From Promethearchaeota archaeon (GTDB lineage Archaea; Asgardarchaeota; Lokiarchaeia; Sigyniarchaeales; SOKP01), in contig JAEOTZ010000016.1 in assembly GCA_016839585.1 (NCBI GenBank), positions 1-64,000 of the forward strand: a stretch of 64,000 nt of DNA, read 5' to 3'. Positions within the stretch are counted from its first letter, which is position 1. Every line of letters begins with the position of its first letter. Below, in pieces: positions 5,728 to 23,395 of the stretch. The notes beneath the pieces were generated by a model. The model was not told where the DNA came from and searched no databases. It saw only the letters and a program-made list of their open reading frames with translations. Both the position numbers and the translations under genes were made by a program.

Positions 5728-6486
5728 ATGGTAGACCAAGAAGAAAATTCAAAAGAAAAAGAAATTAAAGAAAGTGGTTTAGATGATATTTTTAGTGTAG
5801 AGGATATTAAGGAAAAGGAAGATTTAACAACTCTATTTGCTGTTAGAACAACTATTAATCAAGAAAGTAACATCTTAAACCAAATTTTCTATCGGTTTAA
5901 GATTCTTGATGTAATTCCTGATATAAGAGCAATTCTTGTATCTCCTCTATTACCGGGTTATATATTTTTTGAAGCACCAACTAAGAGGCAAGTGCAAATA
6001 GCAGTTCAAGGGATTCCACATATTAAAGGGAGAATAGTACAGAATATCAAGCTTAGTGAACTTAAGCATGTATTATTACCTAGAAGTGTGACAGAATATT
6101 TAGAGGAAGGAGATACAGTTGAAATTATAAGTGGTGTCTTTGAAGGATCAAGAGCACTAGTTATGCGGATGCCACATGACACAAGTTCCAGTGAAGAAGT
6201 CGTAGTAAGGTTATTACAAGAGGAAACTCCAATTACAATTAAAATTCATGGCGACTATTTAAAGTTAGTAGAAAAGAAGAAACCAGTAGAAGAACCGATA
6301 CCCGAAGTGAAAGTTACAGAGCAATCAGTAACAGATATAGAGAAAGCAATAAGTTTCGAAGATGATTTTGAGGAGTTTGAAGAAGAATATAAAGAAAGTT
6401 ATAAAGGTGAAGAGATTGAAGAACACGCGGAAGACGAGGAAGATATAGATGAAGATGATGAATGGGCAAAATTTGAAGGTTATTAG
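5728..6486 (+). CDS. spt5: transcription elongation factor Spt5/NusG with acidic N- and C-terminal extensions
   Basis: NGN domain (FAVRTT...PGYIFFEA) plus KOW (LEEGDTVEIISGVF). Confidence 0.85.
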   Translation: MVDQEENSKEKEIKESGLDDIFSVEDIKEKEDLTTLFAVRTTINQESNILNQIFYRFKILDVIPDIRAILVSPLLPGYIFFEAPTKRQVQIAVQGIPHIKGRIVQNIKLSELKHVLLPRSVTEYLEEGDTVEIISGVFEGSRALVMRMPHDTSSSEEVVVRLLQEETPITIKIHGDYLKLVEKKKPVEEPIPEVKVTEQSVTDIEKAISFEDDFEEFEEEYKESYKGEEIEEHAEDEEDIDEDDEWAKFEGY

Positions 6487-6697
6487 ATCATAGAATTAAA
6501 GAATCTAATTAATATATTCATGTTTATTATTTTTTTGTCAATGAAGAAAATTATTTCGTTAAGTTAATAGAAAATTTATTTATATTTGTTGAGTTCACAC
6601 TAAGTAATTAAATCATACAAGAATTTTTATAGATTAAATATTATTTTAAATAATAAGGTATTGAATAATTATACTTACTAAATCAGTTTTGACCTAA

Positions 6698-7450
6698 ATG
6701 ATTAAGAATATCTTCATAATGAAAGGTAATACTGGTGAATTAATTTTCTATAAAACTTATGAAGATATTTTTAACATTAAATTAACAAGCAGTTTCTTGA
6801 GTGCAATTTTCTCATTTGTAAAGCAAACATTAAAAACTGAAGATTTATCTGAAATTGAGGTTGGTCCTTTTAGGTTCATATTCGAAATTGAAAAAATAGA
6901 GAATGATGAATTAATGTTTGCTTTATTCAGTGATCGAACAGATAATTTGGTTGAACTTAGAAATCAGTTAAGGGAAGTAAAAACTCAATTTTTAAACAAA
7001 TTTGATTTAAGTTTACTTACTGACAATTTTGATGGTGAAATTTCTAAATTCTTTAATTTTGATGAAAATATCGTTAGCATTATGGAAAATAGCAAACAAT
7101 TAGTTCCAAAAGAAATTCAAAATGATTTAATCAAAGTTTTTAACGAGTTACATACCTTCTCTTCATTTGTCGTTTCCTCGGCTTTATTAACCCAAACTGG
7201 TAGGGTAATTATCTCCTATTTAGATCCTAATATTCTTTCTGAAATCATTAGGCTTTTAGAGGGCAGATTTCTAGTAGGCAATTTTAAAGTAAATGAACTT
7301 ATATCTTTAGAGGATTTTGGCATTCTTTCATTAGTGGGAATAGATGAACATTTCATTTCTGTTGTTCAATTTAAACCTAATTGTCCATTTGAAACAGGTC
7401 TTATAATATCAAAGAAATTTTCTAATCGTTTGCAAAAATTAATTTCTTAA
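6698..7450 (+). CDS. longin-like plus roadblock-like domain protein
   Basis: N-terminal MIKNIFIM..GELIFYK..LTSSFLSAIFSF longin pattern; C-terminal VVSSALLTQTGRVI roadblock pattern. Confidence 0.6.
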   Translation: MIKNIFIMKGNTGELIFYKTYEDIFNIKLTSSFLSAIFSFVKQTLKTEDLSEIEVGPFRFIFEIEKIENDELMFALFSDRTDNLVELRNQLREVKTQFLNKFDLSLLTDNFDGEISKFFNFDENIVSIMENSKQLVPKEIQNDLIKVFNELHTFSSFVVSSALLTQTGRVIISYLDPNILSEIIRLLEGRFLVGNFKVNELISLEDFGILSLVGIDEHFISVVQFKPNCPFETGLIISKKFSNRLQKLIS

Positions 7451-7574
7451 ATTAAACTTATTAAAACCAGAAATTAGGTTTTAAAAAAAATTAAAAAGTT
7501 AGATTATATTTTCTTAAGTAGATTTAATTGATTTTTAAATTTACAAAATTTAGTGTTAGGGGTAAAAAAAAATA

Positions 7575-8864
7575 ATGAAAAACACAAAATTTATGAACCA
7601 AGCTATTAATGATGAAATTTTAGCTAAGTTAAGCCTTAAGAATCGATACAGTTTCTTGAATAATAACCTAATGCCTATATTATCTCCTGAACAATTCAAC
7701 TATCTAAAGGGTGTTCAAAAATTTTGCATGCGTTTTGAAAAGAAAAACAATATAACTCATGGACCGGATGAAGATGTGTATGATTGGATCCCTGCTTTTG
7801 GGGAACAAGGGTATATCACAAGAGCTCATAACTTTGATATGATTGATATAAATTATGATAATTATGGGGCAGTAGCTGATTTTCTGAGATACCTCGCGAT
7901 TGATATGTTTGATACGCAATTTGCTATGGGTAGCGGAGCAACGGTATTAGCTATTAACCCGATATATGACCACCATGAAGGGGTCCCTGAGAGATTGGAA
8001 GCGTTGAAGGATTTAATTACAGGAAAATCTCCTGGAGCAATACTTATCACAGAACCTGAGAGAGGTTCAGATGCTGTCCACCAATTAAGTGTATGCGAAG
8101 AACAAGACGATGGTAGCTTCATCTTGAATGGAGAAAAAATTTACAATACGAATGCACCCAAATCCAAGTGGGTTGTTGCATATGCAACTGCCGAAAAAAA
8201 CAATGGAAACTTGATGGCTCAATTTTTAATTAATACTGAATGGGACGGATGGCAGTGTGAGCGTGTCTATATTCCATGGGTCCCAAAACTTTATCTAGGA
8301 CATGAAAAATTAGTAAATCTCAGAGTTCCAAAAGAATACATCTTAGGTGGCGTAGGAAAGGGTCGCGAGCATCTATTCGAGGGATTAATTCCTGAAAGAA
8401 TTGGTATTGCATGTGGCGCAATTTCCCAATGTTGGGGTGCTGTTTCACATGCAGCTATTTATGCTAATATGCGAAAGCAATTTGACCAAGAAGTTCTCAA
8501 ATTCCAAGGCGTAGGCTTCCTCTTGGCAGATCTGTGGGCAAAGACAACCAATTTAACCATTGGACTTCTAAAATTCGCAGAAACTTATGATGATAAGATG
8601 GAAAAGTTTGGTGGAGAAATCCCCCGAAATATTTCAAGAGCTATGGTAGCAAGCGCTTCTCAGTTCAAGTATCATTGTACAAATCTTTCCAAGGAAGTTT
8701 GCTATGAGGCAGCAAATCTAATGGGTGGAGCAGGTCTTTGTGACAATACATTAATGCATGATTATATGAATATTTCAAGAATCCAAGAGATCCTGGGAGG
8801 TTCAAGACAAATCCAGCAATATATCATGAGCATGGCTCTACGACAACTTTTCAAGATGCTTTAA
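7575..8864 (+). CDS. acyl-CoA dehydrogenase (copy 1)
   Basis: ITEPERGSDA, LNGEKIYNTN, RKQF...FQGV, LMGGAG. Confidence 0.93.
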   Translation: MKNTKFMNQAINDEILAKLSLKNRYSFLNNNLMPILSPEQFNYLKGVQKFCMRFEKKNNITHGPDEDVYDWIPAFGEQGYITRAHNFDMIDINYDNYGAVADFLRYLAIDMFDTQFAMGSGATVLAINPIYDHHEGVPERLEALKDLITGKSPGAILITEPERGSDAVHQLSVCEEQDDGSFILNGEKIYNTNAPKSKWVVAYATAEKNNGNLMAQFLINTEWDGWQCERVYIPWVPKLYLGHEKLVNLRVPKEYILGGVGKGREHLFEGLIPERIGIACGAISQCWGAVSHAAIYANMRKQFDQEVLKFQGVGFLLADLWAKTTNLTIGLLKFAETYDDKMEKFGGEIPRNISRAMVASASQFKYHCTNLSKEVCYEAANLMGGAGLCDNTLMHDYMNISRIQEILGGSRQIQQYIMSMALRQLFKML

Positions 8865-16710: not shown

Positions 16711-16923
16711 TTACTCTTCTTCCTCTTCATCTCCCAATAATTCTTCGATTTTATCTTCTAACTCTTCTACTTTCTCATCAATTTCTGCAATTTTCCTATA
16801 TGTCTCACAAGTCTCGCAAGCATCATTTTCCTCACACTTGGGAAGAGTGTCGCATATTTCCTCTAGTTGATCCCTTTCCTCTAATAATTTTTCAACTTGG
16901 TCCTCAAGTTCTTCGATACTCAT
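16711..16923 (-). CDS. small acidic coiled-coil protein with central Cys cluster
   Basis: heptad acidic helices flanking C-x5-C-x5-C-x2-C; SD GGTGTGA upstream. Confidence 0.7.
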   Translation of the reverse strand: MSIEELEDQVEKLLEERDQLEEICDTLPKCEENDACETCETYRKIAEIDEKVEELEDKIEELLGDEEEEE

Positions 16924-17055: not shown

Positions 17056-17880
17056 CTAACGGAAAAAGAAGAAGAAACTGATGATCATTAATGCAATTAT
17101 TACAATTGTTAAAGAAAGAAGCAAAAACTTTTTAGTTAAATGTGTTCTCTTTTTGATGTTATCATTTTCTTGATATGGAGCCGTTTCAATTAAAAATTTC
17201 TTAGTTGGGGTTTTTTTTCTAATGGGAACTTCTTCTTTCTTATAGAGCCTTTTAAATTTCTTTCTGAAAGTTTTAACAGACTTTTTAATTATATCTTGAA
17301 CCTCTTTTGGTAAATCTTCATCGGCTATTTCAAAATCACGAGTCATAAAATCTAAACCAATAGTTAATTTATAACTTGTTTCAAATTTCTTTCCTATAAA
17401 AGTTTTAATTAAGGATGACTTCCCTACTGCGGCATCTCCAACAAGTAAGATCTTAAATCTGAAATGATTCCCATCGACTACTTCTCCTAATCTCGGTTGA
17501 AGATCTAATAAAGCAATAATAGCTAGTCGATTAAACAAATTATCTACATTTTCATTTTCTAATGCTGAAGTTTCAATATATTCAAATAAATGATGCTGGT
17601 TTACTTTTTGTATTATTTTTTTGCGAGGTATTATTTCGCCTAAATCCTTTTTCAAGTCATTCTTATTTCCAACTAAGATAATTGGGACGTTTCCTGATCT
17701 ATTCCTTATGTCATTAAAATATACATCAATATCATCATAAGTATCAGGACGACTTAAGTCGAAAACTAATCCTATGGCAGCAACACCCTTATAGAAATCA
17801 GTTTTAAAGAAATCAAATCGTTCTTGTCCAGCAATATCCCAAAGGCTGAGTGTAATTTTCAAGTTGGAAATAAACTCCAA
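17056..17880 (-). CDS. circularly permuted Rab-like GTPase with C-terminal membrane anchor
   Basis: motif order DIAGQ(15) NKND(72) SAL(105) GDAAVGKS(148) TIG(173); hydrophobic C-terminal helix. Confidence 0.85.
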   Translation of the reverse strand: MEFISNLKITLSLWDIAGQERFDFFKTDFYKGVAAIGLVFDLSRPDTYDDIDVYFNDIRNRSGNVPIILVGNKNDLKKDLGEIIPRKKIIQKVNQHHLFEYIETSALENENVDNLFNRLAIIALLDLQPRLGEVVDGNHFRFKILLVGDAAVGKSSLIKTFIGKKFETSYKLTIGLDFMTRDFEIADEDLPKEVQDIIKKSVKTFRKKFKRLYKKEEVPIRKKTPTKKFLIETAPYQENDNIKKRTHLTKKFLLLSLTIVIIALMIISFFFFFR

Positions 17881-18000
17881 TATATTTTAATTTCAGATAA
17901 AATTTATTTGTAAAATTTTTCTTTTCATTGAATATTTCTAGTAAATTATCAAAAATTAATTTTTATATTAATAAAAAGAATGTTAAAAAGATAAAGAAGG

Positions 18001-18742: not shown

Positions 18743-20803
18743 TTAAGTAGGAGACAACTCCTGCATCTTTTCTTCAATTTTCTTATCATTAATCACTATT
18801 TTTTTATCTAATACCTTAAGCTCTTTACTAATTTCTTCGAATCTACTTTCTTGATCATTTAATTTCTTTATATATCTTTCTTTTAATGTAATTGATTGAC
18901 TATCAGTCCCTAAAACAGCAATGTTTTCTCTCAGCCTTTCTTGTTCGCCAGTCATTACATCGCGTTCTTCATGTAATTTTTCTCTCTTGTTTTTTAAATC
19001 ATTTGAAGTCTGAATTAATTCTGCAATTTCTTTTAGTTGTTGTTCGAGTTTTGGATCAATGAATTTATGTTTGACATAAAAGCCTACTCTTTTAAGAATA
19101 TCTTCCTTGGACCAATTCCATAAGTAATTGCTTGAGTAATTTTCTTTTCTTTCTTTAAGTTTAAAGATAATCGCATCTTTAGGTTTTAAAGTTATTTTAA
19201 AGCGCCAATAATTCGGTGTTTCTTCTGGATCAACAGGTTTTTCTATAAATTTGTAACCAGAAGTTTTAGGATGATCAAGATAGAGTTCTTTTTCTTCAGT
19301 GGTCTTGTTATTTATTTTGTATTCAGTCATTAAATTAGTATAATAGTATTCATAAGAATAACCACTCCCAAACGTTACTTTATGAACGCTTAAATTTTCA
19401 GATTTTTGTTCATGCATTATAATTACAGCTTGTTCAACAGCATAATTTAATAGTCTTGTATCTTCTTTATTCAAAAAGGGGATAATAGCTTCTCCTGCAA
19501 GATTATCATCATAGATTAGTGTAGCAGGTCCTCTTTCTAGTGTTAAATTTGTATTATTTGTTATTTCAAGACATGCATTAGGATTTTTATTATGTTCATC
19601 TTTATTATACAATAATATTCGCTTAGCTTTGATTGCTTCGGTTAAAATGGGAACTAAAGCAGACTGTTTCCTTTTAATGGAAACAGGATTTGAAATATTA
19701 TACTCAAAAAGCTCCCCTATATCTTTAGTTTGAGTTTTCGTCTGAAATTTAACTTTATCCATTAATGCATCATCAGATATTGTGGCTCCTGTAACACCAA
19801 ATCCACCAGCTGCTCCTGCTGGTGGTGCAGATGGAGCAGCTACCATTCTTGCACGACTCTTCATAGCTTTAAGTTTAGGTGCTGCTTCCGCCATACTGTA
19901 TTCTTTAAATCTTTCCATTTCTAAACCCTCCTCTATTTCGGTAGGTCTAGCACTCAAAACTTTCGGTGGTTGAATAACAGGACGCTGAATAAAAATAGGT
20001 CTATAAAAATCATATATAAAAGAAACCGGCATTCCTGCCACTAAAGATAATGCTATATCTTCCCAATCTTGATTTGTTGTATTTTCAATAAGACTCCAAC
20101 CAGAAAGTAAACACTTCTGTTCTAATGCTTGTTGTTTGCTCATTATTAATCGATAAGAAGTCTTCCAGATAGGGCTTTCTCGTATATAAGATACAAAAAT
20201 ACTTCTTTCAATATTATCAGCTCCACCTGACTCACAATTAATTTTTATCTTTTTAGCATCTTTCTTCTTTCCAGCAATAATAGTATCAAAAAAAAATTTT
20301 AAATCTTTTTTAATGTCTTCATTTAATATATCGAAGGACTTAATCTCTGAAAAGGGAATTTTGGTAATAATATCATCATCTTGTAATATTATCAATAATT
20401 TCTCGATTATTTTTTGTTCTTTAATAAATTTTTCAATTTCTTCAATGCCTATTATAGTTCCTAAAATTTGTTTACTAGCTCCAATTGTTAGATTGACTTT
20501 TGCTCCTTTAATTTGCGTTATAAGTGAAGAAAACGAATCTTTATCAGGAATGTTTAACATGATTGATTTTAATAACTGTAGAGTGTCTAAAGCAGCATCA
20601 TAAGAAATTGAGGATATATATCCTTTTTCACTAGTGTCTAATACAAAAAGAGATTTTAGTACATCATTCATCTCATCAACTTTAAATTCAAGTTCGAACG
20701 AATCTGTTCCTTTTATTATCCCTTCGAGAATATAATAAGAAACCCCGTGCTTGAAAATTATAACTTTTTTTACTTTTAATTTTGACATAAAATTATTATA
20801 CAT
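18743..20803 (-). CDS. DUF4139-family protein
   Basis: VIIFKHGVSY, MNDVLKSL, PIWKTSYRL, ENTTNQDWEDIALSLVAG, ELFEY; C-terminal coiled coil. Confidence 0.8.
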   Translation of the reverse strand: MYNNFMSKLKVKKVIIFKHGVSYYILEGIIKGTDSFELEFKVDEMNDVLKSLFVLDTSEKGYISSISYDAALDTLQLLKSIMLNIPDKDSFSSLITQIKGAKVNLTIGASKQILGTIIGIEEIEKFIKEQKIIEKLLIILQDDDIITKIPFSEIKSFDILNEDIKKDLKFFFDTIIAGKKKDAKKIKINCESGGADNIERSIFVSYIRESPIWKTSYRLIMSKQQALEQKCLLSGWSLIENTTNQDWEDIALSLVAGMPVSFIYDFYRPIFIQRPVIQPPKVLSARPTEIEEGLEMERFKEYSMAEAAPKLKAMKSRARMVAAPSAPPAGAAGGFGVTGATISDDALMDKVKFQTKTQTKDIGELFEYNISNPVSIKRKQSALVPILTEAIKAKRILLYNKDEHNKNPNACLEITNNTNLTLERGPATLIYDDNLAGEAIIPFLNKEDTRLLNYAVEQAVIIMHEQKSENLSVHKVTFGSGYSYEYYYTNLMTEYKINNKTTEEKELYLDHPKTSGYKFIEKPVDPEETPNYWRFKITLKPKDAIIFKLKERKENYSSNYLWNWSKEDILKRVGFYVKHKFIDPKLEQQLKEIAELIQTSNDLKNKREKLHEERDVMTGEQERLRENIAVLGTDSQSITLKERYIKKLNDQESRFEEISKELKVLDKKIVINDKKIEEKMQELSPT

Positions 20804-21550: not shown

Positions 21551-23395
21551 ATTTTAAAATCTTTTAGGGGAAAATTATTAAATGTCAATTTAACAAATAA
21601 AGAAGTCAAAATTGAACCGTTAAATGAAGAATTCTCAAGAAGTTTCTTAGGAGGTGCTGGTTATGCTTGTCGTTATTTATATGACAAGCTGGATAAAGAT
21701 ACAAATCCATTAGCTCCCGATAATATCTTAATGATTATGACAGGTCCCTTAAATGGTACATTTGCGCCAAATTCAGGGAGATGGGTGGTGTGTTCTAAAA
21801 GTCCTTATACAGGGATGTGGGGAGAATCTAATTGTGGGAGTTGGTTTGGTGCTGAACTTAAAAAAGCGGGATATGATGGGATGATTATATCTGGTGCTTC
21901 AAAAGAACCGGTTTATATTGAAATTAAAGATGATAAAGCGGAAGTAAAGGATGCAAGATTTTTATGGGGAAGAGGGACTGAATATACTACCATGATGTTA
22001 AAGGATGTTTTTGGGGATAATCATGCGATGGTTGCATGTATAGGGCAAGCTGGTGAGAACCTTATAAAATTTGCTAATATCATATCTGAACAACGAGCAG
22101 CAGGTCGTACAGGTATGGGAGCTATTTTTGGTTCAAAAAAATTAAAAGCGATTATAGTAAAAGGAAATAATCTTCAATTAGATGTTCATAATAAAGATGA
22201 ATTAAAAAAATCTATAAAAACAGCTAGGGACAATGTAAAAACTAATTATGGATCACAGGTATTAACTAATTTCGGCACTTCAGGAACAGTGGATCTGTAT
22301 AATTCAACAGGAGAATTGCCTATTAAATATTTCACACTAGGAAAATGGGACAAGGCTACGAAGATATCTGGTATAACGATGGTCCAAACTATTCTTATAA
22401 AAAATAGATTTTGCCATTCTTGTGTAATTGGATGTGGGAGAATAATAGCTATAAAGGAAGGGAAGTATAAAACTAAAGAAACTGAGGGACCTGAATATGA
22501 AACGATATGTGGATATGGAAGTTTGATTTTAAATGATGATCTTGAATTTATATGTTATATAAATACAAAATGTAACGATTATGGGATTGATACTGTTAGT
22601 TCAAGTGGAATTATAGCTTGTATTATTTATCATTTTACTCTTGGAAATATTAAACCAAGAGATATTGATGGATTAAGTCCAAATTGGGGTGATACTGAAA
22701 CAGTAGAAAAATTACTAAATAAAATTGTTTATAGAGAAGGAATAGGCGATATATTAGCAGAAGGATCTAACGCTTTTGGTAGAAAATTCAGTATTCCCCA
22801 AGCTGAGATAGCTACAATTGATGGATTAGAAATTACTTATCATGATATGCGCTCAAATTATGGTATGTCAATTGCCTATGGAATGGGTGCTGCTCATAAA
22901 GGACCTTCTCACAATTTATGTGACCTATATTTTGTATTGATGGGTTATCCATTTGAAGAAATTAATGCACCTACAATAACTTTAGATACTTATGCAAACG
23001 ATTTAGAGATGGCTAAATGCTGTTCAATCATGATGGATTATAGAGCGCTGTATAGTTCATTGATAATCTGTTCTTTTTGTAATCCATTGCCCTCTCAAAT
23101 TGCCACAATTATCAAACATGCAACTGGTTTAAAATTTGGTCTAGATGAGATAAAATTATATGGTGAAAGAATACTAACTATGAAGAGATTGTTTAACTTA
23201 AAAATGGGGGTTACTCCAATGATTGATAAAGTTCCTCAAATATTATTAAAACCTCTTATTGAAGGTGGTTCGGCTGGAAAATCACCTGATTTTGAATTAT
23301 TGCGAAAAAACTTTTATAACTTTAAAGAATGGGATTTGATTACTGGAAAAATTAGTAAATCTAAACTTGAATTTTTAGGTTTAGATAATTTATAA
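21551..23395 (+). CDS. aor: aldehyde:ferredoxin oxidoreductase (W/Mo AOR family); probable ATT/ATA start (first ATG 21731)
   Basis: SKSPYTG, GRTGMGAIFGSKKLKA, CHSCVIGC, GPEYET; N-terminal GKLLNVNLT...FLGGAG lies upstream of the first ATG. Confidence 0.9.
   Translation: MLKSFRGKLLNVNLTNKEVKIEPLNEEFSRSFLGGAGYACRYLYDKLDKDTNPLAPDNILMIMTGPLNGTFAPNSGRWVVCSKSPYTGMWGESNCGSWFGAELKKAGYDGMIISGASKEPVYIEIKDDKAEVKDARFLWGRGTEYTTMMLKDVFGDNHAMVACIGQAGENLIKFANIISEQRAAGRTGMGAIFGSKKLKAIIVKGNNLQLDVHNKDELKKSIKTARDNVKTNYGSQVLTNFGTSGTVDLYNSTGELPIKYFTLGKWDKATKISGITMVQTILIKNRFCHSCVIGCGRIIAIKEGKYKTKETEGPEYETICGYGSLILNDDLEFICYINTKCNDYGIDTVSSSGIIACIIYHFTLGNIKPRDIDGLSPNWGDTETVEKLLNKIVYREGIGDILAEGSNAFGRKFSIPQAEIATIDGLEITYHDMRSNYGMSIAYGMGAAHKGPSHNLCDLYFVLMGYPFEEINAPTITLDTYANDLEMAKCCSIMMDYRALYSSLIICSFCNPLPSQIATIIKHATGLKFGLDEIKLYGERILTMKRLFNLKMGVTPMIDKVPQILLKPLIEGGSAGKSPDFELLRKNFYNFKEWDLITGKISKSKLEFLGLDNL

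Follow-up and report, generated by a model that had tools for sequence, protein, structure and literature searches.

A circularly permuted Rab-like small GTPase with a predicted C-terminal membrane anchor in one order of Asgard archaea

RESULTS

An archaeal gene encodes one complete G domain in permuted order

Analysis of a reverse-strand gene in the window (the whole 64,000-nucleotide stretch of DNA from a Promethearchaeota archaeon) confirmed that it encodes one complete, intact Rab-like G domain, circularly permuted at the hairpin between strand 2 and strand 3. The G motifs are each present once and follow the chain order G3-G4-G5-G1-G2. The gene is real and under purifying selection, and its family is confined to one Asgard order rather than being a one-off. 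We give a probability of roughly 0.8 to the reading that the product is a functional Rab-like permuted GTPase, of a single origin separate from that of the eukaryotic cpRAS domain, serving as a membrane-tethered GTP/GDP switch. Within this reading, we infer that the protein binds and hydrolyzes GTP, that it inserts into the membrane and in which orientation, that it recruits effectors, and how it originated.

The open frame at 17056..17880 (-) has 274 codons counted from the first TTG. Residue numbers refer to this 274-aa frame unless the 268-aa product is stated. The features of the locus are as follows.

17887..17889 (-): in-frame TAA, three codons upstream of 17880, read directly from the sequence
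17875..17878 (-): GGAG, Shine-Dalgarno-like, 12 nt before the TTG at 17862
17056..17862 (-): most likely coding sequence, 268 aa, with a TTG start, placed from the relatives' N termini and the conserved TTG with its Shine-Dalgarno-like motif
17824..17838 (-): G3, DIAGQ, residues 15-19, end of strand 3, at the N terminus of the domain
17656..17667 (-): G4, NKND, residues 72-75
17560..17568 (-): G5, SAL, residues 105-107
17464..17499 (-): joint from helix 5 to strand 1, QPRLGEVVDGNH, 12 residues, with a conserved PRLGE motif
17416..17439 (-): G1 P-loop, GDAAVGKS, residues 148-155
17347..17373 (-): G2/switch I, YKLTIGLDF (T173), running into strand 2, end of the domain
17233..17307 (-): basic amphipathic helix, residues 192-216, directly after strand 2 and preceded by an LPxE motif
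17146..17232 (-): disordered Lys-rich linker, residues 217-245, pLDDT below 50
17062..17127 (-): predicted C-terminal transmembrane (TM) helix, residues 252-273, tail anchor, hydropathy 2.18 over 19 residues
17056-17058 (-): stop codon

The product opens with strand 3 and G3, KITLSLWDIAGQERF, and the strand 1/G1 sequence, FRFKILLVGDAAVGKS, follows later in the chain. This order had been proposed in the initial annotation of the sequence, and motif positions, Pfam matches, and a re-ordered alignment agree on it. First, the motif residues are invariant in an alignment of 64 sequences: D15, G18, and Q19; N72, K73, and D75; and S105 in G3-G4-G5, and G148, G153, K154, and S155; and Y170, K171, and T173 in G1-G2. 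Second, the Pfam Ras profile (PF00071, E 1.4e-37) is matched in two stretches of swapped order. Residues 6-120 correspond to profile positions 45-157, and the P-loop part starts at residue 143, where positions 1-44 of the MMR_HSR1 profile are matched. Third, a sequence re-ordered by script, with residues 134-179 placed before 1-121 (268-aa numbering), aligned in one piece with a canonical 177-aa GTPase from the same genome (positions 1-159 of 167, E 5e-41), whereas the native order gave two separate matches. This end-to-end alignment means that the two halves make up exactly one G domain, with no overlap and nothing missing. Judged as a member of the Ras superfamily, the protein has the five G motifs and the small-GTPase fold but not the canonical G1-G2-G3-G4-G5 order. 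The ends of the domain likewise place the break at the interswitch (strand 2/strand 3) hairpin, where it had been located initially.

The predicted fold is consistent with a single domain. The AlphaFold2 model is of moderate overall confidence (mean pLDDT 74.6, pTM 0.65; four other models were lower, at 49-63), and its switch II is poorly defined. It runs through strand 3, strand 4, helix 3, strand 5, helix 4, strand 6, and helix 5 and continues with a short hairpin, strand 1, helix 1, and strand 2; a short strand (132-136) lies inside the joint between helix 5 and strand 1. Canonical structures of Rho and Rab proteins align with residues 6-128 of the model (their residues ∼50-181) with Z scores of 10-11 and rmsd values of 2.3-2.9 over about 120 residues. 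Solved structures of the permuted proteins YjeQ/RsgA, YqeH, YlqF, and an Lsg1-type pre-60S factor are colinear with residues 18-184 across the joint, with Z scores of 9.1-9.8 over 125-142 residues. The two sets together suggest that residues 6-185 form one G domain, and the fold comparison for a longer relative agrees, with a higher Z score. One complete G domain was what structure prediction had been expected to return, and the model and its structural matches bear this out. A homodimer prediction for residues 7-222 with GTP scored 0.00, which gives no verdict either way.

The G domain is Rab-like

Rab-type switch motifs are TIGxDF and WDTAGQERF according to the RabF definitions, and the permuted protein carries YKLTIGLDF and WDIAGQERF. 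The 60 best solved chains by sequence were all Rabs, one of them an Asgard Rab, in line with the Rab-like character assigned at the outset. The best matches were the "Thorarchaeota Rab" (PDB 7ezb) and the eukaryotic Rab11, Rab7, and Rab35, with E values of about 1e-23 to 2e-24. The G motifs and the fold from strand 3 to helix 5 are the same as in canonical Asgard and eukaryotic Rabs. Two differences are apparent. First, canonical Rab-like GTPases are ordered from G1 to G5, whereas the permuted protein has G3 first. Second, the canonical paralogs in the same genome end right after helix 5, whereas the permuted protein has a tail.

Outside the window (G000:C27, about 6480-8200, +) lies a GTPase of 531 aa that has a zinc ribbon and a linker rich in Pro and Glu. 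It is frameshifted between G2 and strand 2, and its P-loop part, MAEEYDFLFKSIVVGDGGVGKT..., is in another frame. This split GTPase could be a pseudogene, a sequencing error, or a case of recoding.

The product most likely starts at a conserved TTG codon

The reading frame initially annotated at 17056-17880 stands, but its start probably does not. Translation most likely begins at the second TTG (17862, residue 7 of the 274-aa frame), because the relatives begin there, mostly with TTG behind a Shine-Dalgarno-like motif. The N terminus M/L-K-[IVL]-T-L-S-L-W-D is common to all relatives. Of five relatives whose DNA was inspected, four start with TTG and one (L018) with ATG, and all five have a GGAG/GAGGT-like or GGTG motif before the start at a distance similar to that in the window. 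The start codon occupies positions 6001-6003 in loci L013-L016 and 17860-17862 in the window. The first ATG of the frame does not occur before residue 188, and it may be that the weak TTG start is conserved to keep translation deliberately low. The in-frame TAA noted three codons upstream was found at 17887-17889, and it excludes an upstream P-loop lost from the N terminus.

The permuted gene is conserved within one order

Relatives with the same architecture are numerous. The protein database returned 402 matches, and the best 120 of the 402, drawn from many independent assemblies, all have G3 before G1 and the same N terminus; architecture and N terminus are both shared by over 100 database clusters. 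Among 400 Asgard genomes, full-length matches (E at most 1e-40) were found in 66, all in two families (f1 and f3) of one order. The counts were 63 of 134 genomes in the window's family, 2 of 14 in the second family of the same order, and 0 of about 250 in other Asgard families, absences that are soft since the survey scored the top candidates per genome only and many genomes are incomplete. A junction query was limited to the stretch from strand 6 through strand 2, a segment that only permuted genes have in colinear form; full-length matches to it came from these same 66 genomes. The search for homologs of the same order, set as a check when the sequence was first read, thus succeeded, and a finding that would have counted against that reading, a lack of such homologs, is contradicted. 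Pairwise dN/dS against five relatives was 0.07-0.13, with dS saturated.

Some of the matching entries (P0031, P0069, P0089, P0091, and P0096; loci L015, L016, and L018) carry Thor-, Odin-, Hod-, or Hermodarchaeota source names. Their loci share long synteny with the Lokiarchaeia-type window, and the labels are therefore suspected to be wrong; this is probably the explanation, rather than a wide distribution. A 1,169-aa CHAT-domain protein (P0281), suspected of being permuted at 94% query coverage, turned out to have the canonical order.

A tree was inferred with IQ-TREE (short search, 168 columns) from 38 permuted domains after re-ordering, together with two canonical sets: 38 domains of the window's genome and 37 database representatives. 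In it, the permuted proteins group as a single clade (SH-aLRT 99) that sits within the canonical Asgard GTPases. Its closest neighbors are canonical paralogs that the window's genome carries on contigs C5, C68, and C90. The clade consists of two branches, a short type of 214-283 aa, which includes the protein in the window, and a long type of 376-755 aa. The long type (for example, P0127, P0131, P0133, P0140, P0142, and P0271-P0278; loci L021-L023 from 7001 onwards) adds a Pro-rich linker and a conserved all-beta domain, and most of its members have one or two predicted TM helices. The all-beta domain, with the motifs FPGC...LD...ITP...G...TP, resembles an Ig-like sandwich (Z 8.9-9.4), which is a common arrangement, and it matched no Pfam family. 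In the protein database, it turned up only fused to the permuted GTPase, and a search for it in the window's genome gave nothing significant (E 0.11).

The C-terminal extension combines an amphipathic helix and a predicted tail anchor

The basic linker and single C-terminal TM helix described in the initial annotation were recovered by hydropathy and by an AlphaFold2 helix at residues 241-273 (pLDDT 88-96). The extension begins with the basic amphipathic helix (192-216), which has a pLDDT of about 80, a hydrophobic moment of 0.7-0.75, and a net charge of +6. P191 and E193 of the LPxE motif are invariant in the 64-sequence alignment, and the linker at 217-245 varies among relatives in both length and sequence. 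The hydrophobic tail is preceded by KKRTHLTKK and followed by a single residue. There is neither an N-terminal signal nor a hydrophobic segment besides residues 252-273 of 274, as is typical of a tail anchor with its single TM segment at the extreme C terminus. The Lys-rich flank before the TM helix is the sole indication of orientation, and it suggests that the helix would be inserted post-translationally, with the N-terminal domain in the cytoplasm.

Eukaryotic Rabs are prenylated at C-terminal cysteines. The permuted protein ends in ...ISFFFFFR, and its tail has no Cys, so a Rab prenylation motif is absent. The TM anchor may stand in place of prenylation. Among about 49 small-GTPase ORFs in the genome, none has a terminal Cys motif, only this one has a C-terminal TM helix, and two others have N-terminal TM segments.

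The anchor is missing from about three-quarters of the close relatives listed, which means that anchoring is not essential to the family. Basal short-type members and most long-type members carry TM helices, and the anchor is therefore probably ancestral and was then lost several times; six state changes were counted on the tree, some of them possibly threshold artifacts. The basic amphipathic helix is retained in the relatives that have no anchor, and these proteins could still bind membranes peripherally through it.

The P-loop carries two alanines

The P-loop, G-x-A-A-V-G-K-S, has Ala at the positions of Ras Gly12 and Gly13, and this Ala-Ala pair is conserved in the short type. Judging from the sequence, hydrolysis could be slowed or differently regulated. 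An extreme form of this would be a very slow GTPase or a nucleotide-binding scaffold locked in one state instead of a cycling switch, and the lack of a conserved neighboring GAP or GEF candidate is consistent with it. However, neither the catalytic Gln of G3 nor any of the nucleotide-contacting residues varies, and the P-loops of the long type are GAGGVGKT or GAAGVGKT. A locked state is therefore quite unlikely.

Neighboring genes reflect kinship more simply than function

In several relatives, the genes for Trx_9, the 683-aa protein, the methyltransferase, and the permuted GTPase follow one another in this order with short gaps. This raises the question of whether the GTPase works specifically with the upstream Trx-like, 683- to 686-aa, and class I methyltransferase genes on the same strand. 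Some short-type loci, however, have no methyltransferase or 683-aa gene, and the long-type loci have none of the three and share only the Hrq1-like helicase upstream. A family-wide link was dropped because of these long-type loci, and we consider a specific partnership very unlikely; close kinship is the simplest explanation of the synteny. A search for a partner gene conserved across short- and long-type loci found none. The Hrq1-like helicase lies a few kilobases upstream of both types of gene, and this shared position suggests that the two are positional orthologs.

Three further genes in the window deserve mention. A 686-aa protein (18743-20803, -) keeps its place beside the permuted GTPase in several relatives, as does a very acidic 70-aa coiled-coil protein with four Cys residues (16711-16923, -); searches of Pfam, NCBIfam, and solved-structure sequences put a name to neither. 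The aldehyde:ferredoxin oxidoreductase ORF at 21731-23395 (+), taken from its first ATG, is without about 55 N-terminal profile positions, and AFOR_N is matched from position 56.

The permutation is likely separate from that of eukaryotic cpRAS

The switch sequences of cpRAS are nearly identical to those of H-Ras. In the cpRAS domain of the eukaryotic CPRas proteins, the motifs are ordered G3-G4-G5-G1-G2, the chain is broken at the strand 2/strand 3 hairpin, and a short linker leads from helix 5 into strand 1 (Elias and Novotny 2008, Biol Direct 3:21, PMC2430557). Its motifs, DTAGQEEYSxMRDQY, YDPTIEDSYRKQ, and NKCDL in the supplement and YDPTIEDSY for G2, are those of Ras proper, and it is found only in eukaryotes, within 840- to 970-aa VWA/Sec23-24-trunk proteins or a 3,933-aa macroglobulin-like protein (PMC2430557). 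A 2008 survey held that a break in the strand 2/strand 3 turn should prevent folding, with cpRAS as the sole counterexample. No experimental characterization of cpRAS was found in the literature.

The Asgard protein has the same motif order and the same break point as cpRAS and differs from it in several respects. First, the joint has 12 residues, compared to about 7 in cpRAS. Second, the motifs are Rab-like (TIGLDF and DIAGQERF), whereas those of cpRAS are Ras-proper (TIE, DTAGQEEY, and NKCDL). Third, it is an archaeal, stand-alone protein with an N-terminal G domain and a predicted TM anchor, whereas cpRAS is embedded in large proteins; no VWA/Sec23-24-trunk or macroglobulin-like Pfam domain was found here or in seven longer relatives. 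The protein therefore has the order and break of cpRAS but neither its Ras-family signature nor its large-protein context. A search among long proteins did not retrieve the eukaryotic cpRAS proteins.

Judging by these Rab-like motifs, the nesting of the clade among Asgard paralogs, and the narrow distribution, a separate origin of the permutation is likely. Independence had been claimed initially, and the claim is well supported, though not proven, by the motifs and by the position of the clade among canonical GTPases of the same genome. The opposite case is that the Asgard family and cpRAS share one ancestral permutation and that cpRAS is an Asgard inheritance. Several observations would fit such a history, namely, the identical motif order and break point, joints that both contain a Pro-Arg-x-Gly-x-Glu-like motif (TPRTGVE or TPRQGVE in cpRAS and PRLGE in the Asgard protein), and a 2026 paper in which CPRas is potentially present in the last eukaryotic common ancestor. 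They are set against Ras-proper switches in cpRAS and Rab-like ones here, a clade that nests among Asgard paralogs, an occurrence in one order only with 0 of about 250 genomes of other Asgard families, and the absence of a VWA/Sec23-24-trunk domain from the protein in the window and seven longer relatives. We find a shared origin very improbable.

The YRG (YlqF/YawG/RsgA) permuted GTPases have the order G4-G5-G1-G2-G3, with the break between strand 3 and helix 2 (PMC2430557). Like the Asgard protein, the YlqF-YawG-RsgA-YqeH proteins are natural permutants of the G domain in which helix 5 leads into strand 1. Unlike it, they are TRAFAC-class ribosome-assembly factors with RNA-binding domains and are universal and ancient. 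The Asgard protein does not have the YRG order, and the NCBIfam models for YlqF, YqeH, and RsgA scored 13-22 bits against cutoffs of 208-483.

A 243-aa protein from the transcriptome of the foraminiferan Bolivina argentea (EukProt, P0204) is Rab7-like, and a single open frame encodes its motifs in the order G3-G4-G5-G1-G2. This could be a third instance of the G3-first permutation or an artifact of transcript assembly.

DISCUSSION

It is virtually out of the question that the permuted gene is an artifact, be it two GTPase genes joined as a chimera, a pseudogene, or a miscalled part of a tandem GTPase. The gene does lack an ATG before residue 188 and lies in a genome with about 49 GTPase ORFs and tandem pairs. 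However, independent assemblies repeat its architecture and N terminus, in 66 genomes and over 100 database clusters, its dN/dS points to purifying selection, the upstream stop and intergenic region are present, and the TTG start is conserved.

A canonical Rab-like paralog within one order of Lokiarchaeia-type Asgard archaea would have given rise to the permutation in a single event. A plausible route is that tandem genes were fused and both ends were then lost. Precursor-like arrangements for such a fusion exist. For example, in a genome from another family of the same class (G128:C1:359825-360091), two canonical GTPase genes lie next to each other, and the junction query matches them colinearly across two stop codons. 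Fused tandem GTPases with two domains also occur (P0148 and P0151).

Because of the permutation, the chain begins and ends at the tip of the interswitch hairpin. The extension at the C terminus would leave directly from strand 2 as a basic amphipathic helix, followed by a flexible linker of ∼30 residues and one TM helix. The protein would most likely work as a GTP/GDP switch permanently tethered to the cytoplasmic membrane face, with the tether starting from strand 2 and not from helix 5. Effectors would be recruited or released according to the nucleotide state, without the cycle of lipid modification and extraction of eukaryotic Rabs.

The permutation may itself be adaptive and not neutral. 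With the amphipathic helix and the anchor wired to strand 2, nucleotide-dependent movement of switch I and the interswitch could be passed on mechanically to a membrane-proximal helix. We regard this as unlikely. If it were true, it would mean an Arf-like interswitch coupling built on a Rab-like scaffold and a self-anchored membrane-identity switch in Asgard archaea that needs no lipid modification or extraction factor.

The topology is already known from cpRAS; the novelty lies in the lineage, in the protein standing alone, and in its membrane anchor. Searches of open-access papers and bioRxiv found no account of a permuted GTPase from Asgard archaea. The family provides a second, probably independent, and strongly conserved natural case, which shows that the Ras fold can be permuted in this way and still be viable and selectable. 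The family places a permuted G domain in the archaeal relatives of eukaryotes in the form of a small stand-alone protein that should express easily, which makes it a tractable target for structure determination and GTPase assays. It also offers one way in which Asgard archaea, whose small GTPases carry no prenylation motifs, may attach a Rab-like switch to a membrane, and this bears on how membrane-associated GTPase systems were organized before eukaryotes.
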